A stretch of DNA of 64,000 nucleotides from assembly GCA_019187495.1 (NCBI GenBank), contig JABAQN010000009.1, positions 34,934 through 98,933 of the forward strand, written 5' to 3'. This stretch comes from Steroidobacteraceae bacterium. Lineage in GTDB: Bacteria; Pseudomonadota; Gammaproteobacteria; Steroidobacterales; Steroidobacteraceae. The position numbers were made by a program, and so were the translations under genes. Shown piece after piece: positions 19,463 through 55,141 of the stretch. How positions within the stretch are numbered: position 1 is the first letter of the stretch; each line of letters opens with the position of its first letter. Below the pieces are notes generated by a model. It ran no database searches and had not been told where the DNA came from. It saw only the letters and a program-made list of their open reading frames with translations.

Positions 19463-19603
19463 TCACCCGAGCGCACGCCGGTAAGCCGAAGGCGAGCGCT
19501 CTGCCCAGACCCTGGATGCGCGCGTGAAAGTCGCCACGTCGCTGATGTCCGGATGCGCGGCGACACCGTAAAGTTGGCAGTCATCTTTGCAGATGTGAAT
19601 AGA
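19463..19603 (-). pseudogene. 3'-terminal remnant of an AraC-family regulator gene
   Basis: Own translation of the 46 codons between two stops: SIHICKDDCQLYGVAAHPDISDVATFTRASRVWAERSPSAYRRALG*. The tail SDVxxFxRAxRxWxxRxxSxYR matches the C-termini of the two intact AraC genes in this window (e.g. GYSDVSNFRRAFRSWTGRRISDYR). There is no upstream continuation. Confidence 0.6.
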
Positions 19604-19706
19604 TCATATTTGCCAATGCACGAGCATGACCACCCCAGTCAATAATGGGGCTCAGGTGTCAGGACTCCATGGATAGCGGTCAAATGCGCCTTTCCCGCCT
19701 GCCGGA

Positions 19707-24662: not shown

Positions 24663-24721
24663 TGCACGACTCCTCGATAATGCAAGCCTACCTCGTTTCA
24701 AGGCGCGCGGAGGTACCGCTC

Positions 24722-33441: not shown

Positions 33442-33541
33442 GGGCGAAGGGTCTCCTTCGAGAGCGACAACTTGACAACCGCGGGGGCAGAGTCTATCGA
33501 GTATTCAACGCCCGCCCATCGTCCGAATTGGGGAGTCGACC

Positions 33542-33979
33542 ATGCATCGCACCGCTCGATCGTACAGCGCGGCAGCCGCCGCATTGGCATCACTGCTGAC
33601 TTGCCCACTGGTCGCCATCGTGCACGCCGACGAGGCGCACACTCCGCCGCCGGCAACGGTCGTGTCCCTGATGACCCGGGACCTCGCCAACGCACCCGGC
33701 AAGGAAGCCGTGATGCTCACGGTGGAGTATCCCCCCGGCGGCGCCTCCCCGGCGCACCGGCACGACGCCGAAGTATTCGTGTATGTGCTCGAAGGCAGCC
33801 TGACCATGCAGGTGGACGGCCAGCCGGCCGTCACGCTCACGGCCGGGCAGACCTTTCACGAGGCGCCGGGCGACGTACATCGTCTGTCCGCCAATGCGAG
33901 CCGGACCCAACCCGTGAAATTCCTGGTGTTCATGGTGAAGGACAAGGACAAGCCCGTCACCCTGCCCGTGACGCCCTGA
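33542..33979 (+). CDS. Secreted cupin-domain protein
   Basis: 145-aa ORF with signal-like AAAALASLLTCPLVAIVHA and the cupin motifs GGASPAHRHDAEVFVYVLEG ... GDVH. Confidence 0.8.
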   Translation: MHRTARSYSAAAAALASLLTCPLVAIVHADEAHTPPPATVVSLMTRDLANAPGKEAVMLTVEYPPGGASPAHRHDAEVFVYVLEGSLTMQVDGQPAVTLTAGQTFHEAPGDVHRLSANASRTQPVKFLVFMVKDKDKPVTLPVTP

Positions 33980-34010
33980 CACGACCGCCGCCGAGGCGCC
34001 AGCCTCGCAC

Positions 34011-35468
34011 TCACTTCATCATTCGATCGATCACCGAACGGTAGCGTTTGCCGAAGGGCGGCCGCATGCCGAAGAGATCGGTGAGGTTGATTCTCGATTG
34101 CACGTAGACGGCGCGCGCGTGCGAGAAGCGCTTGAATCCTTCGTACCCATGGTAGGCGCCCATGCCGCTCGGGCCGACGCCACCGAAGGGCAGATCCTCG
34201 CACCCCGAGTGCGCGGCGATGTCGTTGACGGTCACGCCGCCGGACTGCGTTCGCGCGATCACGCGCTCGAGTTCCGGTCCTCCACGTCGGCCGAAGTAGT
34301 ACAGCGCGAGCGGATGATCCCGGCCATTGATGTAGTCGATCACCTCGTCGATGTCGCGGTAGGTTCGAATCGGCAGCAGCGGCCCGAATATTTCCTCGCG
34401 CATGATCGGCTGGTCATCGGCCGGATTGATGACCAGCGTGGGCGGCAGCTTGCGCGCGGGCGATCCGCGAAACGATTCGTTCGCCGGATTCAGCTCGATG
34501 ACCTCGGTGCCCGCGGCGGCGGCGGCGTCCCGGTAGCCCTGCAACCGCGCCAGGTGGCGCCCGTTGATGATCGATGTGTAGTCCGGATTGTCGAGGAGGC
34601 GCGGATACATGCGTCCCACGGCGGCGCGCAGTGCCTCCACGGTGTCGCGCAACCGCTCCTCGGGGACGAAGAGATAGTCGGGGGCGATGCAGATCTGCCC
34701 GGCATTGCTCAGCTTGAAATCGACGATGCAGGCCGCCGCCCTGTCGAGCCCCATCGGCAGCTCGCGACTCACGATCACCGGTGACTTGCCGCCGAGTTCC
34801 AGGGTCACCGGGACCAGATGCTCGGCCGCCGCACGCATGACGTGGCGCGCGATCGTGCCGGCTCCCGTGAACATCAGATGATCGAAGGGTAGCGCCGCGA
34901 AAGCTGCGCCAATATCGAGTCCTCCGGGGAACACCGCCACTTCCTCCTCGCTGAAGTAGCGCGCGACGAGTTCGGCGAGCAGTGCGGAATTGTGCGGCGT
35001 GAACTCCGAAGGCTTGATCATGGCCCGGTTGCCGGCCGCCAGGATATCGGTGAGCGGCGTCACGGCAAGGTTTACCGGGAAATTCCACGGCGCGATCACG
35101 CCGACGACGCCGAGCGGCTGGTAGCGTATGCGGGCTCGCGCGCCGAACAGCGACGGCAGGAAGGCGACCTTGCGTCGCTCGTCCCGCATCCACACGGAGA
35201 GGTGCTTCTGCGCGTAGCGGATCGCGGAGACCGGGTAGGCGATCTCCGTCATCGCGGCGTTCTGGATCGAACGCTCCCCGAAATCCGCGCGCAGCGACTC
35301 GCAGAGCGCGCGCTCATTCTCCTTCAGCAGCGAGGCGAGTCGCTCGAGGCGATCGATGCGCGTGCGCAGGTCGGGCGCCCCCTGCGCACGCTGCGCGGCT
35401 TTCTGCCGCTCGAGCGTTCGGCGCAATCGGTCGGCGGAATCGACTTCGTTGCCGCGTGCATCGATCAC
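34011..35468 (-). CDS. NAD(P)-dependent aldehyde dehydrogenase (ALDH3 / coniferyl-aldehyde dehydrogenase-like)
   Basis: GVIAPWNFP, ELGGKSP and catalytic Cys in NAGQICIAPDY. Proposed GTG start at 35468 overlaps the chaperone stop (GTGA). The 665-aa ORF in the track is an upstream extension through the chaperone gene. Confidence 0.88.
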   Translation of the reverse strand: MIDARGNEVDSADRLRRTLERQKAAQRAQGAPDLRTRIDRLERLASLLKENERALCESLRADFGERSIQNAAMTEIAYPVSAIRYAQKHLSVWMRDERRKVAFLPSLFGARARIRYQPLGVVGVIAPWNFPVNLAVTPLTDILAAGNRAMIKPSEFTPHNSALLAELVARYFSEEEVAVFPGGLDIGAAFAALPFDHLMFTGAGTIARHVMRAAAEHLVPVTLELGGKSPVIVSRELPMGLDRAAACIVDFKLSNAGQICIAPDYLFVPEERLRDTVEALRAAVGRMYPRLLDNPDYTSIINGRHLARLQGYRDAAAAAGTEVIELNPANESFRGSPARKLPPTLVINPADDQPIMREEIFGPLLPIRTYRDIDEVIDYINGRDHPLALYYFGRRGGPELERVIARTQSGGVTVNDIAAHSGCEDLPFGGVGPSGMGAYHGYEGFKRFSHARAVYVQSRINLTDLFGMRPPFGKRYRSVIDRMMK

Positions 35469-36154
35469 GAGGGAACGCCCTTGCGCGGGCTGCGCGAGGC
35501 GGGGCCGTGAACCGTCTCGAGCTGCTCGAGATCGGCCGCGAGACAGCGCTCGAGCAGATCGACGAGCCCGGCGTAGAACGCCATGGGCCTGCGGGCCTCT
35601 AGCTTGCCGCGCATCATCGGAATCCAGCGGCCCGGGTGGCGCGCGATGAAGTCGCGCCGCCCGAGCTGGTAGGACGAAGGATCTTCGCCCTGGTCGATCA
35701 ATTCCGCCTCGCCGTACGCGAGCACGTGCAGGAACTCGAGCTCCGCCGACAGATGATCCGGTGTGTCGCCGCCCTTGCCCGTCGGCGTGAGCCCGAAGTG
35801 CTGGTAGAAACGCAGCACTTCTTCCATCGTCGTCATCTGCGGTCCGACGTGCAGGCCGCCATAGAGCGAACACGGGGATGCCGAGGTGCCCGCATCGAAA
35901 AGCCGCGTGTACTCGGTGGCGAGGGTACCCTCGCCGTCGCCCCCGACTTCCGCGAGAGCGTGCAGGTCGATGGGGCCAGGCAGCGGGGGTTCGAGCTTGC
36001 CGAGCCATTCCTCGAAGCGCGCGGCGAGCACGCCCGCGCGGATCGCCTCGAGCAGCTCGCCGCGCGGATAACCGAATGCCTCGGAGAAGAGCGCGTAGAG
36101 GGCACTGCGCGCCGCGGCAACCCGCGCAAAGGGCAGCTGCAGCTCACCGGTCAT
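35465..36154 (-). CDS. TorD/NarJ/DmsD-family redox-enzyme maturation chaperone (delta subunit)
   Basis: Start MTGELQLPFARV, with its ATG overlapping the upstream stop (ATGA at 36151..36154). Family motifs LATEYTRLF and PDHLSAELEFLHVL. Confidence 0.82.
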   Translation of the reverse strand: MTGELQLPFARVAAARSALYALFSEAFGYPRGELLEAIRAGVLAARFEEWLGKLEPPLPGPIDLHALAEVGGDGEGTLATEYTRLFDAGTSASPCSLYGGLHVGPQMTTMEEVLRFYQHFGLTPTGKGGDTPDHLSAELEFLHVLAYGEAELIDQGEDPSSYQLGRRDFIARHPGRWIPMMRGKLEARRPMAFYAGLVDLLERCLAADLEQLETVHGPASRSPRKGVPS

Positions 36155-37233
36155 CCCGCCACCCGTACGACACGCGTTTCGATGGCCGGCACTGGAAGGC
36201 TCGTGCGCGACCAGCGCAACATCATCATCCCCTCGGCGTGCCCGCACGTATCGATCCAGTTCGGCGCTCCGGGGTTGCGATCCGAGAGGATGATCCTCAC
36301 GGACCCATCGGCCTCGCGCACAGCGGTGTGGTTGTTGACATGCGAGCGGCCCGACGGCCAGGAAAGCGGCTCGAACCAGTAGTTCGTGACATCCACCCCC
36401 CAGTACGGCACATCGGCGGGCGCAAAGCGAATCTCGAGCGCTTCGCCTGCTGCCAGCCGAAAGTGCCCCGAGGCGAAACGATGACCGGTCGGCATTTCCG
36501 GCGACGGTTCCTTTTCCACGAACGGAATCACCCGATTCGGCGGCGCCAGCCGAGCCTGATCGACGATGGCCGCCCAGATCGCGGCGGAACGCGCGACATA
36601 GCCGGCGGTGCGCGGCAGCGCGGCCACGACCTGCGCGAGCGTGACATTCGGTCGTTCGCCTTCGACACCGCGTTCGCGCATGTGGAAGGTCGCCGAAGTC
36701 GTGCGGCTCCAGTCATGGGAATACTGGCGGATGAAAATGCAGTTCGCCTCGGGCGTGGTGCGGATCCAGTTTCCCGCCTGTCGTTCGGGCGAAAGCACGA
36801 TTTCGTAGCGGCCTGCGCCGTCGACCTGCAACTCCCGCTCGGTGAGGGCGCCCACTTGCGCGCTGTGCGCATCGAGCCCGATCTTGCCGGCGTAAACCGT
36901 GAACTCGATGAATGGCGCCTCACCGCGCGTGCCGCTCAACACATAGGTCTTGCGCCCGTCGAGCAGCGCCTGGTGGTAGCGCGCGTCCGATGTCTCACCC
37001 TCGCCGAGAGTCGTCGGAGTGACGAGCGGATACACCTCGGGATGGCCCGTGTCGGCGTACTCGAGCGTCGCCTCGAAGCCCATGCGGATGAGTCGCACGA
37101 GCTTGCGCAGGCCTTCCGCCTGCGAGAGATCGTCGCGCGGCGTCGTCGGGCGCGCGAGCACGGCGCCCGCCGCCTTCAGCTGTTCGCAGAATTCTTCCCA
37201 GGCCTTGACGGCCGGCAGTGTGTCGCTGCTCAT
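36151..37233 (-). CDS. Conserved protein of unknown function, DUF1214-like
   Basis: 360-aa ORF. The N-terminal pattern W.EFCEQLKAAGAVL..P....LSQAEGLRKLVRLIRMGFE ... GTRGEAPFIEF ... GNWI resembles DUF1214 proteins as I recall them. No HMM was run. ATGA overlaps on both sides. Confidence 0.6.
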   Translation of the reverse strand: MSSDTLPAVKAWEEFCEQLKAAGAVLARPTTPRDDLSQAEGLRKLVRLIRMGFEATLEYADTGHPEVYPLVTPTTLGEGETSDARYHQALLDGRKTYVLSGTRGEAPFIEFTVYAGKIGLDAHSAQVGALTERELQVDGAGRYEIVLSPERQAGNWIRTTPEANCIFIRQYSHDWSRTTSATFHMRERGVEGERPNVTLAQVVAALPRTAGYVARSAAIWAAIVDQARLAPPNRVIPFVEKEPSPEMPTGHRFASGHFRLAAGEALEIRFAPADVPYWGVDVTNYWFEPLSWPSGRSHVNNHTAVREADGSVRIILSDRNPGAPNWIDTCGHAEGMMMLRWSRTSLPVPAIETRVVRVAG

Positions 37234-38438
37234 TCCTCGGCCACCTTGAAGAACTCCTGGTAGAAGCGGTAGCGCTGCCGCTCCCGGGCACGATCGAGCC
37301 CGAACTGCTCGAGCGTGTAGCGATGCGTGCCGTGGCGGTCGCGCGGATTCCCGGCGATGAACGCGCGCATGCGCGTGAGCACTTCCTCGCTCATCGGCAT
37401 GCCGAAGTGGGCATAGATGCGCTGCGCCATGCCGACCTGGTCGCGCAGCATTTCCGTGAAGTGCATGTCGAATGCGTTCCGCGCGGCGGGCAGGTCACTC
37501 TGGCGAAACGCGACGCCGCGACGCATCGCCTCTTCCCACGACTTGCTCCAGATCTGCCCGATCTCGTGCCGGTCGACCTCGTCGCTGCCCATCGTGCAGG
37601 CCATCGCGACCAGCGAGCAGTGCGAGGCGATGAGCTTCAGCGGATCGCGATGCGTCATGACGATGCGCGCGTCCGGATAGACCTTGCAGATCGCATCGAG
37701 CGCCCAGTGATAGCCCGTGCTCTTCAGTACCCAGCGCTCGCGCGGATTGAGCCACTGCATGTACTGCAGCTGGCGCTTGTGCGTGCGGTAAACGGAAATC
37801 GGATCGCTTTGCTCCACCCAGCGCTGGTAGGCCGGTATGCGGAACTGGTTGGCGAAGATGATGCTCTTGAAATCGAAGGCGTTGAGCATCAGGCATTCCT
37901 GCGCCAGGTGCGCGCCCATTTCATGCAGCGCCTGGAACTCCGGAATCAGCGCCCGCGAGGTGCGCTCGAAGTGCGCCTCGCAGATCGCGATGCGGGGATC
38001 GGTCTCATAGGTCGCGCGCTCGGGCGGCGGCGACATGAGATGGCATTCCCAGGTCATCGGCACGCGGTTGGCCGGATCCTTTGCCAGCAGGTCGTGCATG
38101 ATGGTCGAGCCGGTGCGCGGCAGGCCCACCATGAAAAGCGGCTTGACGATCTCGACGTCGAGGATTTCGGGATGACGTTTGATGTCGTCCGTGACGCGCA
38201 GCCGGTTCTCGAGATGGCGCAGCAGGTCGTTGAAGGCGATCAGCCGCCCGACGGCATTCAGTCGCGCCTCCTCGTTCAGGCTCGCGAGCAGGCGCTGGAA
38301 TCCCTCGCGCCAGTCGGCCTCATTGCCGAAGTCCGTGAGCCCCGTATTGCGGCGTGCACTGTCGAGCAGCGCGGCTTCGGTCAACTGCACCTGGGGAACG
38401 GAGTCGGACGCCTGGCCTTTGGCCGCACCGGTGTTCAT
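37230..38438 (-). CDS. PAPS-dependent sulfotransferase family protein (Sulfotransfer_3-like)
   Basis: 5'-PSB motif GLPRTGSTIMHDLL and 3'-PB motif VMTHRDPLKLIAS. The second ATG (38438) is preferred because GGAGGT lies 6 nt upstream; the ORF-track start is 38444. Confidence 0.85.
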   Translation of the reverse strand: MNTGAAKGQASDSVPQVQLTEAALLDSARRNTGLTDFGNEADWREGFQRLLASLNEEARLNAVGRLIAFNDLLRHLENRLRVTDDIKRHPEILDVEIVKPLFMVGLPRTGSTIMHDLLAKDPANRVPMTWECHLMSPPPERATYETDPRIAICEAHFERTSRALIPEFQALHEMGAHLAQECLMLNAFDFKSIIFANQFRIPAYQRWVEQSDPISVYRTHKRQLQYMQWLNPRERWVLKSTGYHWALDAICKVYPDARIVMTHRDPLKLIASHCSLVAMACTMGSDEVDRHEIGQIWSKSWEEAMRRGVAFRQSDLPAARNAFDMHFTEMLRDQVGMAQRIYAHFGMPMSEEVLTRMRAFIAGNPRDRHGTHRYTLEQFGLDRARERQRYRFYQEFFKVAEE

Positions 38439-38457
38439 TGGCATACCTCCGGATTCT

Positions 38458-41352
38458 TCATCCGATTTTCTCGATCTCTACGCGCGTCGCCCGATCGGTC
38501 GAGCCCGGACTGAACACCGCCGGCATCGGCTGCAGGTGGTAGTAGCCGCCGGCGAGCTGGACCGGATTGATCGGATTCGGCGTGAGTGTCGAATAGCTCT
38601 TGCGGTTGGGGTACATGAACGGCTCCCAGGCGTGATAGCAGGTCGCCTGGCCCGGGCGGTGCGCCGCCGCCACTTTGACCTGCATCTCGCTCGAGTTGAT
38701 GTCGTTGAATACCCGCACGCGATCGCCGTCTTCGATGCCGCGTGCGAGCGCATCCTCGACGCTCATGTAGATGACCGGCTGGCCACGATTGAGGCGCAGC
38801 ATGTACTTGTCATCGCGCCAGCTCGCATGGATCGACCAGCGGGTATGGCCACCGGTCATGTAGAGCGGATAGTTGCCGCCGATGTTCGGCTGGTCCTTGT
38901 GCACCGGCAGCCGCTCGCCGAGCTCCTCATAGAAGGGGTGGTCGATGCAGAACTGCAGCCGGCGGGTGAGCGTGGGCCAGGGCATTTTCTTCTCGGTGTG
39001 CCACAGGCCCGCCGTGATCGTATCGTGCTCGCTGACGTCGGTGGCATTGCCGATATTCATGAACCCGTTGTCACCGAGCGCCGTGAAGCGCTGGAAGCCC
39101 TTCTCCTTCAGCTTCTTCCAGTCGACATCGCCGACATTGGTGGACACGTCGAGGATGAGATCCAGCAACTCTTCGACGTTGTCCTCGTGGTAGCGACCGT
39201 CGAAGGTGAACTGATCGTAGACGTCGAAGCGGCGCTCCTCGCCGTGGCGATCCTTGAATGTCCCGATGCCACGCTCGGCGGCGCGCCGTTGTATCGTCTT
39301 CAGCAGCAGGCAGTGGATTTCCCAGTCGGGTTTCGCTTCCGCGATGGGCTTCGCCGCGCGCGTCACGACCTGGGAGAAGGGCGAAAGCGGCGTCGCCCAG
39401 GTGATATCGTCCTTCTCGTACCAGGCCGCCGCGGGCAACACATAGTCGCTGTAGAGCGCGGTGTTGCTCATGCGCCAGTCGATCGTCACCATCAGATCGA
39501 GGGTCGGCAGCAGCTTCTCGATCATCACGTCGTAGCCGCGGAAGCGTCGCAGCACGTTGCCGCCGGCCTCCATGAAGATGCGCGGCCGGGTCGCAGGCTT
39601 GAAATGCCAACCCTTCTCGATCGCTTCATCCATGAAGGACGACAGCGGGCGCTTCATCGCCGGGTCCCACTTTTCCGAACTGCCGTAGAGCTCCTTGTAG
39701 CCCCCCTGGTGGTAGAGCCACAGCAGGCTCGGCGGAAAAGCGCCGTGGCGAAACTCGTCACGCGCGAGGTCGTAGATGGTCATTTCCTTCGTGTGCCCGC
39801 GCAGCTTGTCGGCGATGAAGCGCGGCGCCATCTTCAGGCCGAGCGCCGCGAGCTGCAGCTTCGGATTGCCCTGCCCCTTGAGGTTCGCGAGGGCATCTGT
39901 TCCATCCACCGACAAATAGGGGAACGCCATGTAGCCGGCGCCCTTGCGGCCCATTTGCCCGGCGAGCGCAAAACACAGGATCTGCGCGCGCTCCATCTCG
40001 ATGCCATGGTAGTACTTGGAGAAATTCGACTGGGCGATGCAGGTCGCCGCGCGCGCCTTCGCGAGATCGCGGGCCAGCTGCCGGATGACCTCCGGGTCAA
40101 CCCCGCAGATCGCCACGGCCTTTTCGGGCGCGTACTGCTGCAGGTGCTCGCGCAATTGCGCAAACACGGGTCGCACTTTCAGCTTCCCGTTCCAGGTATC
40201 GATCTCGAACTCGCCCTCGAGCGCCGGATCGAGATCGCCCAGGTCCAGGGTCCGCTGCGAGATTTCGACGCGCCGGCCCGTGGCGCGATCGAAGACATGG
40301 AACCGGTCGTCGGCACCGCCCTGCTCCACATCCGAGCCCCGCAGGAGCCGGCCGTTGTCGACGCGCGTCAGCAGCGGCAGATCGGTCTGCTCCTGGACAT
40401 AGCGCTTGTTGTAGATGCCTTCCTCGATCATCACGTGCGCCATCGAAAGGCCGAGGGCGGCGTCCGTCGCCACTTTCACCGGCACCCACTGGTCGGCGTG
40501 GACCGCCGAGGCCGAGTAGTCCGGCGCGATGGTGATGACGCGCGCCCCGTTGTAGCGCGCTTCCGTGATGAAATGGGCCTGCGGGATCTGGGTGTAGAAG
40601 GGATTGCCGCCCCAGATCAGGATCAGGTCGGAATGGAAGAGATCGTCCGACGAACTGCAATGCACCATCTTGCCCGTGGTCACGCAGAAGCCGGGGCGGT
40701 GATCTCCGATTTCCGTGTTGACATCGAGCACCGGCGTGTCGAGCACGAGCGACGTGCGCAACATCGCAAAGCCGGCGCCACCGTTCGTCTGGGCGGTGCC
40801 CTGGTCCCAGATCACCGAACCGGGGCCCTCCGCGGAAATCATGGCATCGATCAGCTTGTCGGCGATATCGGTGAGCGCTTCATCCCAGCTCACGCGCTGC
40901 CATTTGCCCGCGCCGCGCTCGCCGGCGCGCTTCAGCGGATAGCGCATGCGCGCCCCGTCGTACATGCGCTCGGAGTAACAGGCGCCCTTCTGGCAGCCGC
41001 GCGGATTGTAGTCGGGAATCTTCGGACTGATTGGTTCGTAGGTTCCGGACTGCTCTTCGCGCCAGACGATGCCGTCCTTCACGTACACGTTCCAGTTGCA
41101 GCCGCGCTGGTACCAGCAATTCACGAAATGCGTGCTCTTCGCGACGCTGTCCCAGCGCCACTTGGCGCGCCAGATGTCCTCATAGCTCTCGTAGGCGACG
41201 CGTGGAATCGGGCTGCCGTGCCCGCCCGGGGTGGCCGCGCCGATCGACGCATCGCCGGGTTGCGCCGCGCGCCAGCCGAGATAGCCGAGCGAGAGCACCA
41301 CCGCGCCACCGGCGCCGGTGAGGAATGTCCGTCGTGTGAGCTCGATTGCCAT
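38458..41352 (-). CDS. Type II DMSO-reductase-family molybdopterin oxidoreductase alpha subunit (EbdA / steroid C25 dehydrogenase-like)
   Basis: Start MAIELTRRTFLTGAGGAV (Tat motif; GGAG upstream). FS0 motif HFVNCWYQRGC..GCQKGAC. About 60% identical by eye to the orphan alpha at 24722. The ORF-track start 41433 adds an unlikely extension. Confidence 0.9.
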   Translation of the reverse strand: MAIELTRRTFLTGAGGAVVLSLGYLGWRAAQPGDASIGAATPGGHGSPIPRVAYESYEDIWRAKWRWDSVAKSTHFVNCWYQRGCNWNVYVKDGIVWREEQSGTYEPISPKIPDYNPRGCQKGACYSERMYDGARMRYPLKRAGERGAGKWQRVSWDEALTDIADKLIDAMISAEGPGSVIWDQGTAQTNGGAGFAMLRTSLVLDTPVLDVNTEIGDHRPGFCVTTGKMVHCSSSDDLFHSDLILIWGGNPFYTQIPQAHFITEARYNGARVITIAPDYSASAVHADQWVPVKVATDAALGLSMAHVMIEEGIYNKRYVQEQTDLPLLTRVDNGRLLRGSDVEQGGADDRFHVFDRATGRRVEISQRTLDLGDLDPALEGEFEIDTWNGKLKVRPVFAQLREHLQQYAPEKAVAICGVDPEVIRQLARDLAKARAATCIAQSNFSKYYHGIEMERAQILCFALAGQMGRKGAGYMAFPYLSVDGTDALANLKGQGNPKLQLAALGLKMAPRFIADKLRGHTKEMTIYDLARDEFRHGAFPPSLLWLYHQGGYKELYGSSEKWDPAMKRPLSSFMDEAIEKGWHFKPATRPRIFMEAGGNVLRRFRGYDVMIEKLLPTLDLMVTIDWRMSNTALYSDYVLPAAAWYEKDDITWATPLSPFSQVVTRAAKPIAEAKPDWEIHCLLLKTIQRRAAERGIGTFKDRHGEERRFDVYDQFTFDGRYHEDNVEELLDLILDVSTNVGDVDWKKLKEKGFQRFTALGDNGFMNIGNATDVSEHDTITAGLWHTEKKMPWPTLTRRLQFCIDHPFYEELGERLPVHKDQPNIGGNYPLYMTGGHTRWSIHASWRDDKYMLRLNRGQPVIYMSVEDALARGIEDGDRVRVFNDINSSEMQVKVAAAHRPGQATCYHAWEPFMYPNRKSYSTLTPNPINPVQLAGGYYHLQPMPAVFSPGSTDRATRVEIEKIG
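41081..41163 (-). repeat. 83-nt block identical to 24911..24993 in inverted orientation (arm 2)
   Basis: See arm 1. Mismatches lie immediately outside both ends. Confidence 0.95.
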
Positions 41353-41371
41353 GACCGGAGTCTCCTCTTCC

Positions 41372-42451
41372 TCAGAGCGTCGCCGGATCTTTCGTGAAGT
41401 CCGGGAAGATGTCCTCGGGCCAGCGATAGACAATCAGGATGTCCATGAGCTCGGACTCCTCGCCTCGGGCCTTCTTCGCCTTCTCTTCGTCGATGATCGC
41501 GAGCGACTCCCTGACGCGCGGCCCGAACAGCCGCTCGAGGTACTCGGTCGGAATGCGCGGCTTCGATGGATCCGGCTTGCCCGTTTCCGTCACGCTCGGC
41601 GGCGAGAGCGGCGGCACATAGAAGACATTCGGATCGGTACCGAATTCCTCGTGCAGCGGCAGGGCCACCTTCCACTTGTGCACGAGCTTGTGGATGGGTC
41701 CGTTCTCGTCATCGAGATAGCCGACGAAGCGCATGCGTCCCGGACACTGCCGGGCGCAGGCTGGTGCAACGCCCTGGTCGATGCGCGGGAAGCAGAAAAT
41801 GCACTTCTGCGACACGAGCTTCACGTGGTTGTAGTAGATGCGCTTGTACGGGCAGGCCTCCATGCAGAAGCGATAGCCTTTGCACTTCTGGTCATCGATC
41901 AGCACGATCCCGTCCTGCTCACGCTTGTAGATGGCGCCCCGCGGGCAGGCTTCGAGGCAGGCCGGATGCGTGCAGTGATTGCACAGGCGCGGCAGATAAA
42001 AGAAGTGGGAGTTCGGGTACTCGCCGCCACCCTCGTCCTCGTCCCAGTTCGGCCCCCACTTCGGCTTCTCACCCTTGAAATTCGTGGGCTGCAGATAGGC
42101 CTCCTTGCCCCCGCCGTCGAACAGCACTTCCTTCTGGTTGAACTGCCAGGCGTCGCCATACTCCTCGCGCCCCGGGATGCGGCTCGGGCGCGCGAGACCA
42201 TTCGCCTCGAATCCGCCGCCCATGGTTTCGTAGTCCTTCGGCGTCCCCTTGCCCGGCGCGGTATTGACCACGGCCCAGTACATCTCCTCCATGCCCTCCT
42301 CGCGGGTCCACTGCGTCTTGCAGGCGATCGAGCAGGTATGGCAGCCAATGCATTTGTTGAGGTCGAACACCATCGCGAGCTGGCGCCTCGGCTTGACGAC
42401 CTTACCGTCGATTTCGCGCCCGATCCGCGCCGCCTGGTCCAATGGATTCAT
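41372..42451 (-). CDS. Fe-S subunit (beta; NarH/EbdB-like, four Cys clusters)
   Basis: Start MNPLDQAARIGREIDGKVVKPRRQLAMVFDLNKCIGCHTCSIACK (GGAGGG RBS). Further clusters are CNHCTHPACLEACP, CKGYRFCMEACP and CIFCFPR..CARQCP. Confidence 0.9.
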   Translation of the reverse strand: MNPLDQAARIGREIDGKVVKPRRQLAMVFDLNKCIGCHTCSIACKTQWTREEGMEEMYWAVVNTAPGKGTPKDYETMGGGFEANGLARPSRIPGREEYGDAWQFNQKEVLFDGGGKEAYLQPTNFKGEKPKWGPNWDEDEGGGEYPNSHFFYLPRLCNHCTHPACLEACPRGAIYKREQDGIVLIDDQKCKGYRFCMEACPYKRIYYNHVKLVSQKCIFCFPRIDQGVAPACARQCPGRMRFVGYLDDENGPIHKLVHKWKVALPLHEEFGTDPNVFYVPPLSPPSVTETGKPDPSKPRIPTEYLERLFGPRVRESLAIIDEEKAKKARGEESELMDILIVYRWPEDIFPDFTKDPATL

Positions 42452-42455
42452 GTCT

Positions 42456-43115
42456 TCAACCCTCCAGCGAAAGTTCGACCCACACGGGGGAATAGGCCTT
42501 GAGGCCCGCGCGCTCGGAGTTCGCGCCGCTCCAGAGCGCCACCGCGAGGCGGTAATCCTTGCCCGGTTCGAACTTCGCCACATTGCCGGTCGTCGGCGCG
42601 TCGGCCGCGGCGGCCAGCGCCCGCCGGAAGACCAGCGACCAGCGCCCGTCGGCGTGCGCGCCCTGCGTCGTGATCAAGGGTGAGCTGGTCAGGCGCGAAG
42701 TGCCGATGCCGTCGGCCACATTGTTGAGTCCCATCTTTGGCTGGTCCGCACGCCAGTACCAGATGTTCACCGGCGCACCCTCCATGCCCATGATGAGCGG
42801 CGCGTCTTCCGTCAGCGGAAAGAGCAACGCCGCGGCGTCGGCGAACTGATCGTTGTCATTGATCGTGGTGACCGACTTCTGGCACTCCCACTCGAGGCGA
42901 AAGGCGAGCTCCTGGCCGTTGTGGGCCGCCTGCAGCCCGGCCGCGCTCGTGTGGCCGAACTCCCCGTCACGCCACTTCGCCATGATGTACTTCGAGGGCT
43001 GCATGCCCACGGGCGTCGGCACGAGCGCCACTTTGCGCGCCGGGAAGCGCTCCCACATCGATGCCCCGGGATCCCCGAGCGCGTCCGCACCCACATCGAC
43101 TCGTTTCGCAAGCAT
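42456..43115 (-). CDS. Heme-b-type gamma subunit (EbdC/DdhC-like) of type II DMSO-reductase-family enzymes
   Basis: 219-aa ORF at the position and size of gamma subunits, with the conserved-looking C-terminal segment ALWSGANSERAGLKAYSPVWVELSL. AGGAG lies 7 nt upstream. There is no obvious N-terminal signal peptide. Confidence 0.7.
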   Translation of the reverse strand: MLAKRVDVGADALGDPGASMWERFPARKVALVPTPVGMQPSKYIMAKWRDGEFGHTSAAGLQAAHNGQELAFRLEWECQKSVTTINDNDQFADAAALLFPLTEDAPLIMGMEGAPVNIWYWRADQPKMGLNNVADGIGTSRLTSSPLITTQGAHADGRWSLVFRRALAAAADAPTTGNVAKFEPGKDYRLAVALWSGANSERAGLKAYSPVWVELSLEG

Positions 43116-43118
43116 CGT

Positions 43119-44897
43119 TCAACTCCTGGGCACGTACGTGCGGTGAGCGGCATCGAGCGCGTAGACGGCGCTGCCATCGGGTCCGGGCAAAGCGCCCATC
43201 TTCTGCAGATCGGTCTTGCGCAGCTTGAAGGTCGAGGTGATGTCCGCCTCACCCAGGATGCGCACGAACAATGGTCGAGCATAGGCCGGCAGGCTCGTGC
43301 TCGCCAGCTCATAGAACGATCCGGGGTCGAAGCTGCGGCCCGGCTTCAGGGCAATCGCCGCCATGCCCGCGCGTCCCTCCTCGCCCGGCAGTTCCACGCC
43401 ATAGACGGTGATCGACTCGATATCCGGGTGGGCCCCGAGCGCCTCGGCCACTTCGGTGGTCGAGACGTTCTCGCTCTTCCACCGGAAGGTATCGCCGGTG
43501 CGATCGACGAAGTAGTAATAGTCGTCTTCGTCGCGGCGAAACAGGTCGCCGCTTCGAAACCACGCATCCCCGGGCCGGAACACGTTGCGCAGGATCTTGC
43601 GCTCCGTCGCTTCGGAGTCGGTGTAGCCGTCGAAGCGACCCGCACCGATGCCCGGGAGGCGCACGATCATCGCGATCAGTTCTCCCGTTTCGCCCGGCTC
43701 ACACTCGATCAGCGTGCCATCCGGGTTGCGTACGTAATCGCCGGTTTCCGGATCGACGCGCACGAGACGCGCATTGCTGCGTTCCCTGAACGGCAGGCGG
43801 CCGCAGCTGCCGATCCTGCCTTCGAGGTTCATCAGCCCGCAGTTGATCTCCGTGCCGCCGTAACCCTCGACGAGATGCGGGACGGCGAAACGCTGCTGGA
43901 ATCGCCGCCAGATATCCGCGTTGAGTCCCGCGCCGGACATCAGTCTCAGGCCATGCTCGCGATCATTCGATCGCGGCGGCTGATTGACGAGATAGCGGCA
44001 CATCTCGCCGCTGTACTGGGTGACGGTCACGCCGTAGCGACGCACATCGTCCCAGAAGCGGCTCGCGCTGAAGCGTCGCCGCAGCAGCATGCGTCCGCCG
44101 CAGGCGAGCACCTGCGACAGCAGCGACATGCCCGCGGCCACATGGTAGAGCGGCAGCACGCAGTAGAAGACATCGTCGGGCCCGTGCCGAAAGAGCGCGG
44201 TCCACCCGTCGCCCACGGCGAGCCAGCGCATGTGGGTGATCACCGCGGCCTTCGGCAGGCCCGTCGTGCCCGAGGTGAACACGAGACAGAACGTGCTCTC
44301 GCCGATGATGCCTTCGCGCAGCGCCCGCGGCGGATTCGCCTCGTTCGCGGGCTGCGTCCGCATTCCCTCGATGTCACCCGCGGCGTCGACTACCAGCACC
44401 GGCAGGCGCGAAGCCATGCCGCTGGCGCCCCCGGCACTCTCCAGTTGCGCGAGGCACTCCTCGCCCACGAACAAGGCCTTGCTCTGCGTGCTCGCACCGA
44501 TGGCATGCAGCAACGCATCTCCACCGATGTGCGTGTTGATCAACGCGGCAACGCAGCCGATCTTCGTCAGCGCGAACCAGAGATAAAGGATCTCCGGCCG
44601 GTTCTCGAGCATCACGGAGACGGTATCGCCGGGCGCGAGATTCCGCGCTCGCGCGAAATGCGCGTAGCGATTCATCGCCCGGTTCGCGGCACCGTAACTG
44701 ATCTCGCAGTCCTCGAAGACCAGGAAGGGCCGATCCGGGTGCGCGGCGGCGAGCGCCTCGAAGCGGTCGGCGACCGTATACGCCTGTTCCGGCGTGTGTT
44801 TCAGTACCGCGGCGGAAAGCACATCGAGCTTGCGCTGTGTTTCCTCGCGACTCGCCACCACCCCGGCTCCGCTCACATCGAAATGCCGCCGCCACAC
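43119..44897 (-). CDS. Long-chain/very-long-chain acyl-CoA synthetase (FATP/FadD6-like AMP-binding enzyme)
   Basis: 592-aa ORF with the AMP motif FTSGTTGLPKAAVITH and an overall FadD6-like N-terminus. The start is uncertain; 44897 overlaps the SDR 3' end by 25 nt. Confidence 0.88.
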   Translation of the reverse strand: MWRRHFDVSGAGVVASREETQRKLDVLSAAVLKHTPEQAYTVADRFEALAAAHPDRPFLVFEDCEISYGAANRAMNRYAHFARARNLAPGDTVSVMLENRPEILYLWFALTKIGCVAALINTHIGGDALLHAIGASTQSKALFVGEECLAQLESAGGASGMASRLPVLVVDAAGDIEGMRTQPANEANPPRALREGIIGESTFCLVFTSGTTGLPKAAVITHMRWLAVGDGWTALFRHGPDDVFYCVLPLYHVAAGMSLLSQVLACGGRMLLRRRFSASRFWDDVRRYGVTVTQYSGEMCRYLVNQPPRSNDREHGLRLMSGAGLNADIWRRFQQRFAVPHLVEGYGGTEINCGLMNLEGRIGSCGRLPFRERSNARLVRVDPETGDYVRNPDGTLIECEPGETGELIAMIVRLPGIGAGRFDGYTDSEATERKILRNVFRPGDAWFRSGDLFRRDEDDYYYFVDRTGDTFRWKSENVSTTEVAEALGAHPDIESITVYGVELPGEEGRAGMAAIALKPGRSFDPGSFYELASTSLPAYARPLFVRILGEADITSTFKLRKTDLQKMGALPGPDGSAVYALDAAHRTYVPRS

Positions 44898-45649
44898 ACC
44901 GGCAGGATTTGTCCGGTCACGTAGCTCGAGGCGGCACTCGCGAGGAACACCACGGGCCCGACGATTTCGTGCGGTTCCGCGACGCGCTTCAGCAACGTCG
45001 TCTGGACGGTGAAGTCCATGAAGCCTTCGGTGCTGCCGGCCAGATCCTTCAGCATGTCAGTCATGAACGGGCCCGGGGCGATCGCATTGACGCGAATGCC
45101 GAGAGGCGCCCATTCCTCCGCCATGCTGCGATTGAGCGAGCGCATCGCCGCCTTGCTCGAGCAGTACATGGAGAGATAGCCACCCGGCTTGATGGCGCCG
45201 AAGGTGAGGATGTTGACGATCGAACCGCCACCACTTTGCGCCATGCGCTGCGCCACGAGACTCGCGAGGCGCATCGGACCGCGCGTGTTGACGTGGAAGA
45301 AGCGATCGAACATTCCCTCATCCACGTCGGTGAGCGGCAACGGATCGTGCGCGATGCCGGCGTTGTTCACCAGCACGTCGAGCCGGCCGAACGAATCGCA
45401 CGCCGCCTTCACGAGAGTGTCGATGTCGGACCAGCGCTCCATGTCGCAGGGCACGACCTGCGCGCGTCGACCCTGCGATGCGATCTCGCCTGCCACCGCC
45501 GCACCCGCCGCCTTGTCCCGACACGCGATGATGACATCGGCGCCCGCTTCGGCCAGTCCGATCGCGATGGCGCGGCCCAGCCCCCGGTTCGCGCCGGTCA
45601 CGAGACAGACTTTTTGCGAGAGATCAAATAGCGCTTTGCTCGCAGTCAT
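44873..45649 (-). CDS. SDR family oxidoreductase
   Basis: Internal Met MTASKALFDLSQKVCLVTGANRGLGRAIAIGLAEAGADVIIACRD ... YCSSKAAM. The ORF-track start 45877 runs into the ADH gene. Confidence 0.9.
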   Translation of the reverse strand: MTASKALFDLSQKVCLVTGANRGLGRAIAIGLAEAGADVIIACRDKAAGAAVAGEIASQGRRAQVVPCDMERWSDIDTLVKAACDSFGRLDVLVNNAGIAHDPLPLTDVDEGMFDRFFHVNTRGPMRLASLVAQRMAQSGGGSIVNILTFGAIKPGGYLSMYCSSKAAMRSLNRSMAEEWAPLGIRVNAIAPGPFMTDMLKDLAGSTEGFMDFTVQTTLLKRVAEPHEIVGPVVFLASAASSYVTGQILPVCGGGISM

Positions 45650-45656
45650 GGTGTGC

Positions 45657-46748
45657 TCAGTCAAACAGGATGAGGCCGCGCGCATTGCGCCCCGCTTCGA
45701 GGTCGGCGAACGCCCGCGGCGCTTCCTCGATGCCATAGGTTCGCGTGATGAGTCCCTCGAGATCGAGACGCTTCGCCTGGTAGAGCGCCAGCAGGTTCGG
45801 CATGTCCACGCGGAAATTCGAATTGCCGTAAAAGCAACCGAGGATCCGTTTTGCTTCGCCGGCGAGCAGCAGCGCATTCAATTGCATGGCTTCGGTGTAC
45901 CGGCCGACGCCCACGATGCACACGCTGCCCCCGCGCCGTGCCGCCGCGTAGGCCTGCTCCATCACGGCGGGCCGCCCGGTCATCTCGAAGCTGTGGTCCA
46001 CGCCGAGGCCACCCGTAAGCGCCTTCACTGCCGCGACCGGATCCTCGCTCGCGTTCACGCAATCGGTTGCACCGAAGCGGCGCGCGTATTCGAGCTTGTT
46101 GTCGGCCAGATCGATGGCGATGATCTGCTTCGCGCCCACGAGTCGCGCACCCTGGATGGCCGCGAGGCCGACGCCGCCGCAGCCGAAGATCGCGACGGTC
46201 GAGGCCGGTTCGACTCCCGCCGTGTTCGCCACCGCGCCCACGCCGGTCATCACCGCGCAACCGACCAGCGCGGCACTCGCGAACGGAATCGACCGGTCGA
46301 TCGCGATGACATTCGCGGCGGGCACCACCGCGAACTGCGCGAGGCACCCGAGCTGCGACATGGCCCCGAGCTCCTGGCCGCGCAGCTGCAGCCGGCTCGT
46401 GCCATCCCACATCCGCCCAGCCGCATCGCAGTGCACGCACAGATGGGGCTCCTTGTGTGCACAGAACCAGCACTCGCCGCAGTTTGGCACGAAGGAAAGC
46501 ACGACATGGTCGCCGACTTTGACATTTGTCACACCCGGGCCGACTTCCGTGACAACGCCGGCGCCCTCGTGCCCGAGCACCATCGGCAGCGGCATCGGCA
46601 CCGTGCCGTTGGCCACCGAGAGATCCGAGTGACACACCCCGGCGGCCTTCATGCGCACACGCACTTCGCCGGCGCGCGGTGATGCGAGATCGACCTCTTC
46701 GACCGACAGGCGATTCAGTTCGAGTGCGACCAGAGCCTTCACGTTCAC
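45657..46748 (-). CDS. Zn-dependent alcohol dehydrogenase (MDR family); first gene of the 10-gene operon
   Basis: 363-aa ORF with GTG start, GVCHSDLS, GHEGAGVV, CGECWFCAHKEPHLC and IFGCGGVGLAAIQGA. Confidence 0.9.
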   Translation of the reverse strand: MNVKALVALELNRLSVEEVDLASPRAGEVRVRMKAAGVCHSDLSVANGTVPMPLPMVLGHEGAGVVTEVGPGVTNVKVGDHVVLSFVPNCGECWFCAHKEPHLCVHCDAAGRMWDGTSRLQLRGQELGAMSQLGCLAQFAVVPAANVIAIDRSIPFASAALVGCAVMTGVGAVANTAGVEPASTVAIFGCGGVGLAAIQGARLVGAKQIIAIDLADNKLEYARRFGATDCVNASEDPVAAVKALTGGLGVDHSFEMTGRPAVMEQAYAAARRGGSVCIVGVGRYTEAMQLNALLLAGEAKRILGCFYGNSNFRVDMPNLLALYQAKRLDLEGLITRTYGIEEAPRAFADLEAGRNARGLILFD

Positions 46749-46902
46749 CCCCGTGGGCCGGCTGTCGATGCCACAGCGACCGGTCGATCTTAGCCAGCAG
46801 GGCGAGCAGCGCCTTACGTGATTACCGACTGGTCAATTCTGATTAGGCCTTTCGCGCGATCGCGCTTTTGTCGAGACTCCTGCGTGTTAAGGTCCGACGA
46901 CC

Positions 46903-47625
46903 ATGGAAAAACTGATCTACGCCTTCTGGCGCGGCAACGAGTCGGCCGATGCCCTGCGCCGGCGCCTCATCAAGGACGTGCAGCCGCAGCTCCTCGCATT
47001 CGGGGTCGATCGCTTGCAGGTCAATGTGGCCGACCTCGACCTCACGGGCGCCGTCGAGCACATGCGGCTCAGCACCGGCGCGGGCGCGAAGCCGGACGGC
47101 ATCGTGAGCTTCTGGCTCACGAGCGCGTATCGGCGCGCACCCGCCGAGCAACTGCTCGCGAAAACCTTCGCGCGCATCGCGGGCTACGTCGTCGCCGAGT
47201 CGACGATCCTGCAAAACGTCGATCATCCCGCACCGGCGGGTGAGCGCACCTGGGGCTTCAGCCAGGTGAGCTTCCTGAAGGTGCCGGCGCGCCTCGGGTT
47301 CGACGAATGGCGGAGAATCTGGTTCGAGCGACACACGAAGGTCGGCATCGAGACGCAGGCCAACTTCCGCTATGTGCAGAATGTCGTCATCCTGCCGCTC
47401 ACCGCCGACGCCCCCGCGTGGCGCGGCATCGTCGAGGAAGGATTCCCGATCGAGGCGCTACGCGACCTGCGCGTCTTCTATGACGCGGTCGGGAATGAGG
47501 CGAAATTCCAGGCCAATCTCGCGCTGATGATGGAAAGCTGCGGGCGCTTCCTCGACGCCGACGGAACCGATGTCGTCGCCACGAGCGAATATGTGCTGCA
47601 CTCGGCGCCCGAACCGAAACTGTGA
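46903..47625 (+). CDS. Hypothetical protein (possibly tandem EthD-like alpha+beta barrel)
   Basis: 240-aa ORF with ordinary composition, divergent from the 10-gene operon. The N-terminus MEKLIYAFWR.. resembles EthD-type starts. The family was not verified. Confidence 0.5.
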   Translation: MEKLIYAFWRGNESADALRRRLIKDVQPQLLAFGVDRLQVNVADLDLTGAVEHMRLSTGAGAKPDGIVSFWLTSAYRRAPAEQLLAKTFARIAGYVVAESTILQNVDHPAPAGERTWGFSQVSFLKVPARLGFDEWRRIWFERHTKVGIETQANFRYVQNVVILPLTADAPAWRGIVEEGFPIEALRDLRVFYDAVGNEAKFQANLALMMESCGRFLDADGTDVVATSEYVLHSAPEPKL

Positions 47626-55065: not shown

Positions 55066-55141
55066 GGACGGTCTCGGAAAGATGGTAGCGAGCCATCCCC
55101 CGGCTTGCATGCGCTTGCTGGATGCGTAAGCTGCCCGCAGC

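Follow-up and report, generated by a model that had tools for sequence, protein, structure and literature searches.

The stretch of DNA studied here (64,000 nucleotides of contig JABAQN010000009.1 from the metagenome-assembled genome of a Steroidobacteraceae bacterium; the whole stretch is hereafter called the window) carries a group of genes in which a sulfotransferase (ST) of the 3'-phosphoadenosine-5'-phosphosulfate (PAPS) type and a DUF1214 protein are embedded among the genes of a molybdenum (Mo) enzyme that is similar to ethylbenzene dehydrogenase (EBDH) and steroid C25 dehydrogenase (S25DH). The listing of open reading frames (ORFs) and Pfam searches showed ten closely packed genes of the same direction, which ran on the minus strand from 46748 to 34011 (Table 1). 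The gaps between the genes of the acyl-CoA synthetase (ACS) and gamma, gamma and beta, and beta and alpha1 were 3, 4, and 19 nt, respectively. The stop and start codons of the ST/DUF1214, DUF1214/chaperone, and chaperone/aldehyde dehydrogenase (ALDH) gene pairs overlapped by 4 nt, as ATGA, ATGA, and GTGA, respectively. The gene of the short-chain dehydrogenase/reductase (SDR) started with the ATG at 45649, 7 nt from the stop of the alcohol dehydrogenase (ADH) gene. The longest ORF of ACS overlapped that of SDR by 25 nt, and its start is therefore uncertain. The gap between alpha1 and ST was 13 nt if ST starts at its first ATG (38444) and 19 nt if it starts at the next one (38438). The latter is the start of the 402-aa ST deposited at NCBI, and with this start a GGAGGT sequence is correctly spaced as a ribosome-binding site (RBS). 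For both reasons, ST most likely starts at 38438. A scan of positions 30000–47300 for promoters and terminators gave counts at chance level, with a weak hairpin just after the ALDH gene.

Four of the ten genes encode enzymes of alcohol, aldehyde, and acid metabolism, and all four had orthologs in the related clusters of other bacteria that are described below. The identities were 65–87% for ADH, 58–83% for SDR, 59–81% for ACS, and 60–80% for ALDH, whose gene comes after the chaperone gene in the related clusters. The SDR is the conserved SDR of the cluster and could function as an alcohol dehydrogenase or as a 3-hydroxyacyl-CoA dehydrogenase. ACS passed the cut-off of the NCBIfam model PRK08279 for long-chain-acyl-CoA synthetases (668 bits, cut-off 625).

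Table 1. Positions of the genes in the window, with the operon listed first in its direction of transcription.
Feature	Position	Strand	Evidence
ADH, Zn-dependent alcohol dehydrogenase (first gene of the operon)	45657-46748	-	Pfam ADH_N and ADH_zinc_N
SDR, short-chain dehydrogenase/reductase	44873-45649	-	Pfam adh_short_C2, E 2e-59
ACS, acyl-CoA synthetase of long-chain FadD6/FATP type	43119-44897 (start codon uncertain)	-	Pfam AMP-binding
gamma, heme b subunit of type II DMSO-reductase-family Mo enzyme	42456-43115	-	Pfam EB_dh, E 2e-25
beta, subunit with four Fe-S clusters	41372-42451	-	Fer4_11; TIGR03478
alpha1, Mo-bisPGD/FS0 subunit of EBDH/S25DH type	38458-41352	-	Pfam Molybdopterin and Molydop_binding
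ST, PAPS-type sulfotransferase, Stf1/Stf9-like	37230-38438 (alternative ATG 38444)	-	Pfam Sulfotransfer_3, E 3.9e-37
DUF1214 protein	36151-37233	-	Pfam DUF1214, E 9.4e-12, 45.9 bits (cut-off 25)
NarJ/EbdD-type maturation chaperone for Mo enzyme	35465-36154	-	Pfam Nitrate_red_del
ALDH, aldehyde dehydrogenase (last gene of the operon)	34011-35468	-	Pfam Aldedh, E 7.7e-78
alpha2, second, orphan alpha paralog	24722-27619	+	Pfam Molybdopterin and Molydop_binding
CysD	32488-33441	-	Pfam PAPS_reduct
CysN/APS-kinase fusion with intact P-loop	30581-32488	-	Pfam GTP_EFTU and APS_kinase
240-aa protein, divergent from the operon	46903-47625	+	faint EthD match only
LuxR-type regulator after alpha2	27616-28755	+	weak LuxR-family match
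Carboxymuconolactone-decarboxylase-family (CMD) protein, beside the LuxR-type regulator	28762-29277	-	
Membrane-bound pyrroloquinoline quinone (PQQ)-dependent dehydrogenase	22278-24719	-	TIGR03074, 989 bits
Membrane-bound PQQ-dependent dehydrogenase	50773-53181	+	
Sulfatase	1-1653	-	sub-threshold SGSH_C
Sulfatase	4547-6811	-	sub-threshold SGSH_C
Sulfatase	6868-9189	-	sub-threshold SGSH_C and Laminin_G_3
TonB-dependent receptor	9217-11571		
AraC regulator	1763-2851		

Alpha1 contained a twin-arginine motif, TRRTFL, at residue 6 and the FS0 motif HFVNCWYQRGC (H-x3-C-x3-C) at residue 75, and the 15 Cys residues of beta were grouped in four clusters. Alpha1 aligned over its full length with EbdA (2IVF_A; E 2e-202). 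EbdA, PcrA (perchlorate reductase), and NarG were the only solved alpha comparators in the Protein Data Bank (PDB), and their phmmer scores with alpha1 were 678, 479, and 236 bits, respectively. Similarly, the NCBIfam models of EbdA and narG scored 704 and 265 bits. The Mo-ligand Asp and the active-site Lys of EbdA were kept (D217 and K446 in alpha1, D223 and K450 in EbdA). With the NCBIfam models of the type II DMSO-reductase family, beta was above the cut-off (TIGR03478, 511.5 bits, cut-off 480.7), and alpha1 (946.6 bits, cut-off 984.75), gamma (TIGR03477, 148.2 bits, cut-off 169.85), and the chaperone (TIGR03482, 136.8 bits, cut-off 152.3) were slightly under theirs. The equivalog cut-offs of EbdABCD in NCBIfam were missed widely (704 of 2000 bits for alpha, 466 of 740 for beta, 128 of 400 for gamma, and 85 of 360 for delta). 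The Mo enzyme is assigned to the EBDH/S25DH-like hydroxylase branch and not to the oxyanion-reductase branch, and it is not EBDH proper.

The window also contained a second alpha gene. Alpha2 was 62% identical to alpha1 and had its own RBS as well as the same twin-arginine translocation (Tat) and FS0 motifs, and it was without beta or gamma genes of its own. The alphas that were linked to ST in other genomes were 65–87% identical to alpha1 versus 57–60% to alpha2, and they are orthologs of alpha1 and not of alpha2. As read from the sequences, alpha1 has a Tat signal, and ST and DUF1214 lack a signal peptide. So ST and DUF1214 are predicted to be cytoplasmic and the Mo enzyme to be exported by Tat, a split that parallels that between kinase and S25DH in Sterolibacterium denitrificans, which is described below.

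The PAPS-binding motifs of ST were GLPRTGST at residue 107 and THRDP at residue 264. Among 24 homologs with identities of 51–86%, THRDP (264–268) was invariant. Of PRTGST (109–114), P109 and R110 were invariant, and T111, G112, and T114 were conserved in at least 90%. The nearest solved relatives were the mycobacterial STF9 (PDB 2Z6V) and STF1 (PDB 2ZQ5), with E values of about 1e-51 and identities of 28–32%. The AlphaFold2 (AF2) model of ST had a pLDDT of 86.7, and Foldseek aligned it with 2Z6V and 2ZQ5 at template-modelling scores (TM) of 0.85 and 0.81, respectively. Its weak fold neighbors were the CurM ST, retinol dehydratase, and LGS1, with TM of 0.3–0.5. Pfam detected no thioesterase (TE) or acyl carrier protein domain in or beside ST, and CurM (4GBM) matched in general fold only (TMq 0.35, TMt 0.49). 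We know of no established acceptor for Stf1 or Stf9.

The DUF1214 protein matched 6ANS of Burkholderia cenocepacia in the PDB with an E value of 3e-49. Its AF2 model, with a pLDDT of 93.4, was that of a two-beta-sandwich protein with a TM of 0.91 to 6ANS. Matches of the model to bicupins and Cry toxins in Foldseek were disregarded, as their TM was at most 0.25. Eight polar residues were invariant among 73 homologs (R43, D83, Y86, R169, N233, E288, N300, and R340), and three His residues (H173, H251, and H332) were nearly so. The DUF1214 protein has the fold and the C-terminal NW-D/E-T-x-GH...RW signature in common with 6ANS as well as with VPA0735 and VPA0106 of Vibrio parahaemolyticus. As none of the three has a known function, no mechanism can be deduced from them. 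In a profile search of 1.84 billion representative proteins, 2,608 clusters at 50% identity fell into the family (E ≤1e-10), which only three papers of the open literature mention. The NCBIfam scan gave no match for ST or DUF1214. Two metagenomic proteins carried DUF1214 in other fusions, with a SnoaL_2/limonene-epoxide-hydrolase-like domain (P0463) and with an Abhydrolase_3 esterase (P0469). In addition, a SnoaL-like gene of the NTF2 fold was near ST-DUF1214 in three related loci (L013, 13354–13839; L019, 16001–16471; L022, 17029–17469). Such SnoaL-like or esterase proteins may be alternative catalytic partners.

An earlier sequence-only reading of the window had described ten tightly packed minus-strand genes together with their junctions and the motifs of alpha, beta, and ST. 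The Pfam searches returned all ten genes with the content described, the gaps and overlaps were reproduced (its 19 nt with GGAGGT between alpha and ST is correct for a start at 38438), and TRRTFL, HFVNCWYQRGC, GLPRTGST, THRDP, and the four Cys clusters were all found. That reading had also named a PAPS-type sulfotransferase, which both motifs, Pfam, and the Stf1/Stf9 structure matches bore out, and a DUF1214-like protein, which scored above the gathering score of Pfam and has the fold of the solved member 6ANS. Its two alpha paralogs are alpha1 and alpha2. Finally, its view of the Mo enzyme as a hydroxylase rather than an oxyanion reductase agrees with the order of the bit scores (EbdA > PcrA > NarG).

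It had further proposed a search for the same gene order in public genomes. A total of 185,579 species-representative genomes were scanned with an ST profile, and the best 80 of 251 loci were kept and screened with the window proteins. The ST was at least 57% identical to that of the window in 21 of these loci, 20 of which had an adjacent DUF1214 gene and 15 an alpha gene within 4 kb. The sole locus without DUF1214 was a 1.4-kb contig that ended inside ST. The six loci without alpha had at most 3.2 kb of upstream sequence, and alpha was present in 15 of the 15 loci with enough flank. At ST identities below 57% (59 loci), a distant DUF1214-like gene was found in 12 and an alpha gene within 4 kb in only one. 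For the 15 complete cases, the identities with the ST, DUF1214, and alpha proteins of the window co-varied tightly (r = 0.94 and 0.97). Therefore, ST, DUF1214, and alpha were inherited together. The linkage was found in 15 independent species-level genomes of several phyla, and the 21 genomes with the more similar ST belong to Gamma- and Betaproteobacteria, Myxococcota/Deltaproteobacteria, and Binatia.

ST and DUF1214 genes were beside genes for EBDH-like alphas in Pseudomonadales, Halieaceae, Steroidobacteraceae, Rhodocyclaceae, Myxococcota/Deltaproteobacteria, and Binatia. In a metagenome-assembled genome (MAG) of Pseudomonadales, the order was gamma-beta-alpha-ST-DUF1214, followed by ACS, SDR, ADH, and the chaperone. 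The same neighborhood surrounded the ST homolog of a Halieaceae MAG. The order was rearranged to SDR-ST-beta-alpha-DUF1214 in a Myxococcota MAG, and a deltaproteobacterial MAG had alpha, a hydratase, a thiolase, ST, and DUF1214. Genes for a ChsH-like MaoC/DUF35 hydratase and an SCP2/Ltp2-type thiolase were found between alpha and ST in nine loci, and no copy of either was found within the 64-kb window. The full cluster was also present in the cultured denitrifier Thauera terpenica 58Eu (locus L013). Searches with DUF1214 returned orthologs that are assigned to another genus of cultured denitrifiers, Denitratisoma (Denitratisoma sp. DHT3 and D. oestradiolicum), and the contig encoding a DUF1214 protein identical to that of Denitratisoma sp. 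DHT3 at NCBI had the order alpha-hydratase-ST-DUF1214. Collectively, these neighborhoods show that ST and DUF1214 are a conserved part of such Mo operons across phyla, which argues strongly that they are coupled to them in function. The genetic case for the coupling of ST to the Mo enzyme, which the sequence-only reading had made from one operon, is made much stronger by this linkage across phyla.

Additional pairs were observed in two of the loci. In D. oestradiolicum (LR778301.1 2853326–2874438, L090), two ST-DUF1214 pairs were 5 kb apart, one with an acyl-CoA dehydrogenase, a luciferase-like monooxygenase, and two SDRs and the other between IS1595 and DDE transposases. No Mo alpha was found within 10 kb, and the pair appears to be mobile. 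In the closest Steroidobacteraceae relative (L022), another DUF1214-ST pair, which is divergent (29 and 36% identity), was located at 18813–21060, 7 kb downstream of the main cluster. The module has thus expanded by paralogy in a single genome. Genes for luciferase-like oxidoreductases, possibly dependent on F420 or flavin, were beside ST-DUF1214 in the Myxococcota locus L004 (16398–17420) and in L090 (1389–2405), and genes of F420 biosynthesis (a cofE-like F420 ligase gene and cofD) were directly upstream of the T. terpenica cluster (L013, 570–2284). In S. denitrificans, a 'luciferase' co-purified with 25-hydroxysteroid kinase (25-HSK; PMC8449060).

ST and DUF1214 were also associated in mycobacteria. 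The PDB sequence of M. tuberculosis Stf1 led to a 99%-identical protein on a contig of the M. tuberculosis complex (L088), where the gene order was PPE, a 375-aa protein, SDR, and ST, with kshA further along (trio at 2486–5546). We take this order to be that of Rv3532/Rv3531c/Rv3530c/Rv3529c, with Stf1 as Rv3529c. The 375-aa protein at the Rv3531c position was homologous to the DUF1214 protein of the window (BLASTP E 8e-29 over 306 residues); Pfam detected DUF1214 in it only weakly (E 0.0067). Within the loci, the best matches of the SDR at the Rv3530c position included the SDRs of the clusters, with that of the window among them (32–36%). A KstR operator is located upstream of Rv3531c (PMC1995591), and Rv3531c is listed as one of the genes that are needed to grow on cholesterol (PMC6429209, with reference to Griffin et al. 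2011). The trio of DUF1214-like, SDR, and ST genes is part of the actinobacterial cholesterol regulon.

Moreover, a START-like domain (Polyketide_cyc2), Sulfotransfer_3, and DUF1214 were joined in one ORF of 963 aa with a Pro/Ala-rich linker (P0480; L091, 18–2909, on a 130-kb contig of JGI metagenome 3300050225). Its neighbors were a TetR gene and genes for a 708-aa Mo-bisPGD enzyme of another subfamily (Molybdop_Fe4S4), an SDR, an acyl-CoA synthetase, an alpha/beta-hydrolase, and an FMO/BVMO-like protein. The fusion, a single observation, is a Rosetta-stone indication that ST and DUF1214 may act together on a hydrophobic ligand. A second candidate fusion (P0449, the N-terminal half of DUF1214 plus ST, 470 aa) was set aside, as it is on a 2.4-kb contig and may be an artifact of gene calling or assembly.

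The closest known counterpart is the side-chain oxidation of S. denitrificans. In this bacterium, S25DH hydroxylates the tertiary C25 with water and an APH-type kinase phosphorylates the resulting alcohol (PMC7411048, PMC8449060, PMC11061730). The tertiary 25-phosphoester is converted to a delta-24 alkene, for which the lyase gene is still unidentified (PMC8449060, PMC11061730). S26DH then hydroxylates the allylic C26, and ALDH and CoA ligase follow (PMC7411048, PMC8449060, PMC11061730). Common to both systems are an alpha-beta-gamma enzyme of the EBDH/S25DH type that bears a Tat signal and has its own chaperone, more than one alpha paralog sharing beta and gamma (a putative sharing in the window), and the ADH, ALDH, and acyl-CoA synthetase that follow. 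The window would also share with S. denitrificans the division between a periplasmic Mo enzyme and the cytoplasmic activation of a tertiary alcohol that is not oxidizable. Different from S. denitrificans, the window has no APH-type kinase (Pfam found no APH-type phosphotransferase domain in about 55 larger ORFs of the 64 kb), and its Mo operon has ST and DUF1214 among its genes. The kinase gene of S. denitrificans itself is unlinked (PMC8449060, PMC11061730), and S. denitrificans was absent among the best 80 of the 251 ST relatives from the 185,579 species genomes.

Similar to EbdABCD (2IVF) and p-cymene dehydrogenase, the Mo enzyme of the window has the FS0 His/Cys motif, the Mo-ligand Asp, and the counterpart of Lys450, together with homologs of the beta, gamma, and delta proteins. 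Unlike the ebd and cmd operons, that of the window holds ST, DUF1214, and a long-chain ACS. The ST has the same PAPS motifs as Stf1 and Stf9, and the operon of Stf1 also encodes an SDR and a DUF1214-like protein. The mycobacterial operon differs in that it lacks a Mo hydroxylase and is in an aerobic, KstR-regulated cholesterol cluster. Sulfate also serves as a leaving group for other enzymes of the ST fold. In the reactions of CurM ST-TE, which forms the terminal alkene of curacin, of the retinol dehydratase of insects, and of LGS1 of sorghum, an alcohol is sulfated and sulfate leaves as a C=C bond or a ring forms. These three systems are biosynthetic and have no coupling to a Mo hydroxylase or DUF1214.

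We tentatively propose that the module serves the oxygen-independent oxidation of a hydrophobic alkyl end of the isoprenoid type and that ST and DUF1214 sulfate a tertiary alcohol and eliminate the sulfate, a proposal to which we give somewhat less than an even chance. The substrate is most likely the side chain of a sterol or steroid and possibly another isoprenoid. Putative in this scheme are the hydroxyl group that is sulfated, the elimination of sulfate, the function of DUF1214, the nature of the substrate, and the assignment of either alpha to a given hydroxylation. The Tat-exported, chaperone-matured alpha1-beta-gamma would hydroxylate a C-H bond with water in the periplasm, and beta and gamma may also serve the orphan alpha2. 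If a tertiary carbon is hydroxylated, the alcohol would not be oxidizable any further and therefore an activation step would be needed. The cytoplasmic Stf1-like ST would use PAPS to convert the tertiary alcohol to a sulfate ester. Sulfate would then be expelled to form an alkene, where DUF1214 might catalyze or steer the elimination, or hold and protect the labile ester. A Mo enzyme would next hydroxylate the allylic methyl group of the alkene, and ADH or SDR together with ALDH would convert the primary alcohol to an acid, which the long-chain ACS would activate for beta-oxidation. The ChsH-like hydratase and SCP2-type thiolase of the related loci would serve that beta-oxidation. ST and DUF1214 with PAPS would thus stand in for the 25-hydroxysteroid kinase and phospho-lyase with ATP of S. 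denitrificans. The high group-transfer potential of PAPS would make the sulfation irreversible; the reaction of 25-HSK is fully reversible (PMC8449060).

Several observations weigh against this proposal. His192 of EbdA is replaced by Thr in alpha1. Many of the related loci have just one alpha within 10 kb, and the scheme with two hydroxylases is therefore tentative. Foldseek with the DUF1214 model returned only uncharacterized relatives (6ANS and Vibrio proteins from structural genomics) and no enzyme. The designation of DUF1214 as a lyase is a guess, because no relative of it has been characterized. PAPS is a costly donor for a catabolic step. The sequence-only reading had pointed to a PAPS cassette next door, and genes for CysD and a CysN/APS-kinase fusion are indeed present at 30581–33441, on the same strand and 570 nt downstream of ALDH. 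In 87 related loci, however, neither CysD nor CysNC had a match, and the cassette was thus rejected as a conserved part of the system. It may be an ordinary housekeeping cysDN(C), and a supply of PAPS from it is possible. That reading had also put ST in the place of the kinase, which is in line with the lack of an APH-type kinase in the window. Denitratisoma sp. DHT3, however, is reported with homologs of 25-hydroxysteroid kinase (PMC8449060), and the contig with a DUF1214 protein identical to one assigned to this strain carries the ST cluster; therefore ST is not a simple replacement of the kinase, and both can coexist. The M. tuberculosis trio has no Mo hydroxylase, so the function of the trio is not intrinsically tied to an alcohol made by a Mo enzyme. 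Finally, the S25DH-like alpha of T. terpenica, which is assumed here to be that of L013, groups with S25dA8 and p-cymene dehydrogenase, and a non-steroidal isoprenoid was suggested as substrate (PMC6016249, PMC6208644).

Sulfation without elimination would be one alternative. ST might conjugate another hydroxyl group, such as the 3-OH or 17-OH of a steroid or a primary alcohol, to solubilize, traffic, or retain a very hydrophobic intermediate or to form a sulfated lipid, and DUF1214 would bind the ester or hydrolyze it later. Ring hydroxyls are where sterols are most commonly sulfated in biology, and such a role would fit the mycobacterial trio without Mo hydroxylase, the SDR that travels with the ST-DUF1214 pair, and the three sulfatases elsewhere in the window. 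The sulfatases, however, are 25 kb off in a block of lower G+C content with a TonB receptor and an AraC regulator, and SGSH_C matches are typical of glycan sulfatases. ST and DUF1214 are embedded between alpha and the chaperone, and in Myxococcota they flank beta-alpha, which argues for coupling to the Mo reaction. Moreover, the rest of the operon is catabolic, with ADH, ALDH, and ACS as well as the hydratase and thiolase of related loci. We regard conjugation as unlikely.

Another alternative retains the dehydration and assigns it to ST alone, which would sulfate and eliminate in one active site as a PAPS-dependent dehydratase similar to retinol dehydratase. DUF1214 would then be a carrier or scaffold for a hydrophobic ligand or would convert the product, for instance by isomerization or hydrolysis. 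Retinol dehydratase, the CurM ST, and LGS1 have the same fold and release sulfate, with the limit that they match ST in general fold only. The two-beta-sandwich of DUF1214 has no enzyme relatives, and the SnoaL and alpha/beta-hydrolase fusions as well as the SnoaL neighbors in L013, L019, and L022 could supply catalysis. The invariant polar residues of DUF1214, however, resemble an active or anion-binding site more than a passive carrier, and its strict pairing and fusion with ST argue for a direct role. An ST that acts by itself seems rather improbable to us.

Finally, the proposed mechanism might act on a non-steroid substrate, that is, a monoterpene, an isoprenoid, or an alkyl compound, such as an isopropyl-bearing p-menthane, the chains of phytane or pristane, or the side chains of hopanoids. 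T. terpenica 58Eu was isolated on monoterpenes, the alpha of its L013 cluster is 74% identical to alpha1, and a non-steroidal isoprenoid was proposed as the substrate of both its S25DH-like alpha and S25dA8, as stated above. The FadD6/FATP type of ACS, the recurrence of genes for ChsH/Ltp2-kind hydratases and thiolases in the clusters, and the homologs in the KstR cholesterol regulon of mycobacteria speak against it. So does the fact that T. terpenica 58Eu and Denitratisoma, the cultured hosts, are treated as degraders of steroids (bioRxiv 10.1101/710707). We find little probability in a substrate of this kind. That ST and DUF1214 are passenger genes whose adjacency has no functional meaning, as the insertion sequence elements around the mobile D. 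oestradiolicum pairs might suggest, is highly improbable in view of a linkage kept over at least five major lineages despite rearrangement, the correlated divergence, the overlapping stop and start codons, and the fusion protein.

The rest of the window contained genes of several other kinds. Positions 1–11571 form a separate block of low G+C content (0.55–0.59 vs. about 0.66), which holds the three sulfatases, the TonB-dependent receptor, and the AraC regulator and looks like an island for the utilization of sulfated glycans. These sulfatases were rejected as partners of ST, as neither linkage nor conservation with the ST operon was found. At least five further SDRs, a GMC oxidoreductase (14715–16352), an aldo/keto reductase, an AraC regulator, a major facilitator superfamily (MFS) transporter, and a TonB receptor were also present, together with the two PQQ dehydrogenases, which flank the region. 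A PQQ dehydrogenase comes after ALDH in locus L022, too. A second acyl-CoA synthetase (53602–55209) had sub-threshold NCBIfam matches to bile-acid and steroid-24-oyl CoA ligases. The NCBIfam matches of an FAD protein (19989–21359) were to generic 'FAD-binding protein' models only, and those of the neighboring dehydrogenases likewise gave generic names only. A CMD gene was also found in the Myxococcota locus L004 (442–1017).

In full-text searches over 8 million papers and preprints, neither sulfotransferases nor DUF1214 were connected with enzymes of the S25DH/EBDH type. The sequence-only reading knew of no Mo-hydroxylase operon with an embedded sulfotransferase, and none was found in the literature searched. 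The single families are known; the ST-DUF1214 module in Mo operons, the homology with Rv3531c–Rv3529c, and the proposal of a PAPS-dependent dehydration had no precedent there. There is a realistic chance, though well below even, that ST and DUF1214, often with SDR, form a widespread and so far unrecognized PAPS-dependent 'alcohol-to-alkene' dehydratase module for hydrophobic substrates, in which DUF1214 would represent a new family of sulfate-ester lyases.

If the proposal is true, it would provide a third way past the dead end of a tertiary alcohol, in addition to ATP-dependent phosphorylation and elimination and to flavin desaturation. Leaving-group chemistry by PAPS sulfation would also be seen in catabolism for the first time, and DUF1214 would gain its first function. 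Rv3529c (Stf1) and Rv3531c would be explained, for example as removing the 25-hydroxyl of host oxysterols that blocks beta-oxidation of the side chain, which gives a testable hypothesis for these mycobacterial proteins. Direct tests are feasible, as cultured strains hold the cluster or parts of it (the full cluster in T. terpenica 58Eu and two pairs in D. oestradiolicum). Finally, many uncultured Proteobacteria, Myxococcota, and Binatia would be able to convert an unactivated methine or methyl group of an isoprenoid to a carboxylate without oxygen, and Mo-dependent oxidation of side chains would extend far beyond a few denitrifying model strains, to Halieaceae, Pseudomonadales, Steroidobacteraceae, Myxococcota, and Binatia.

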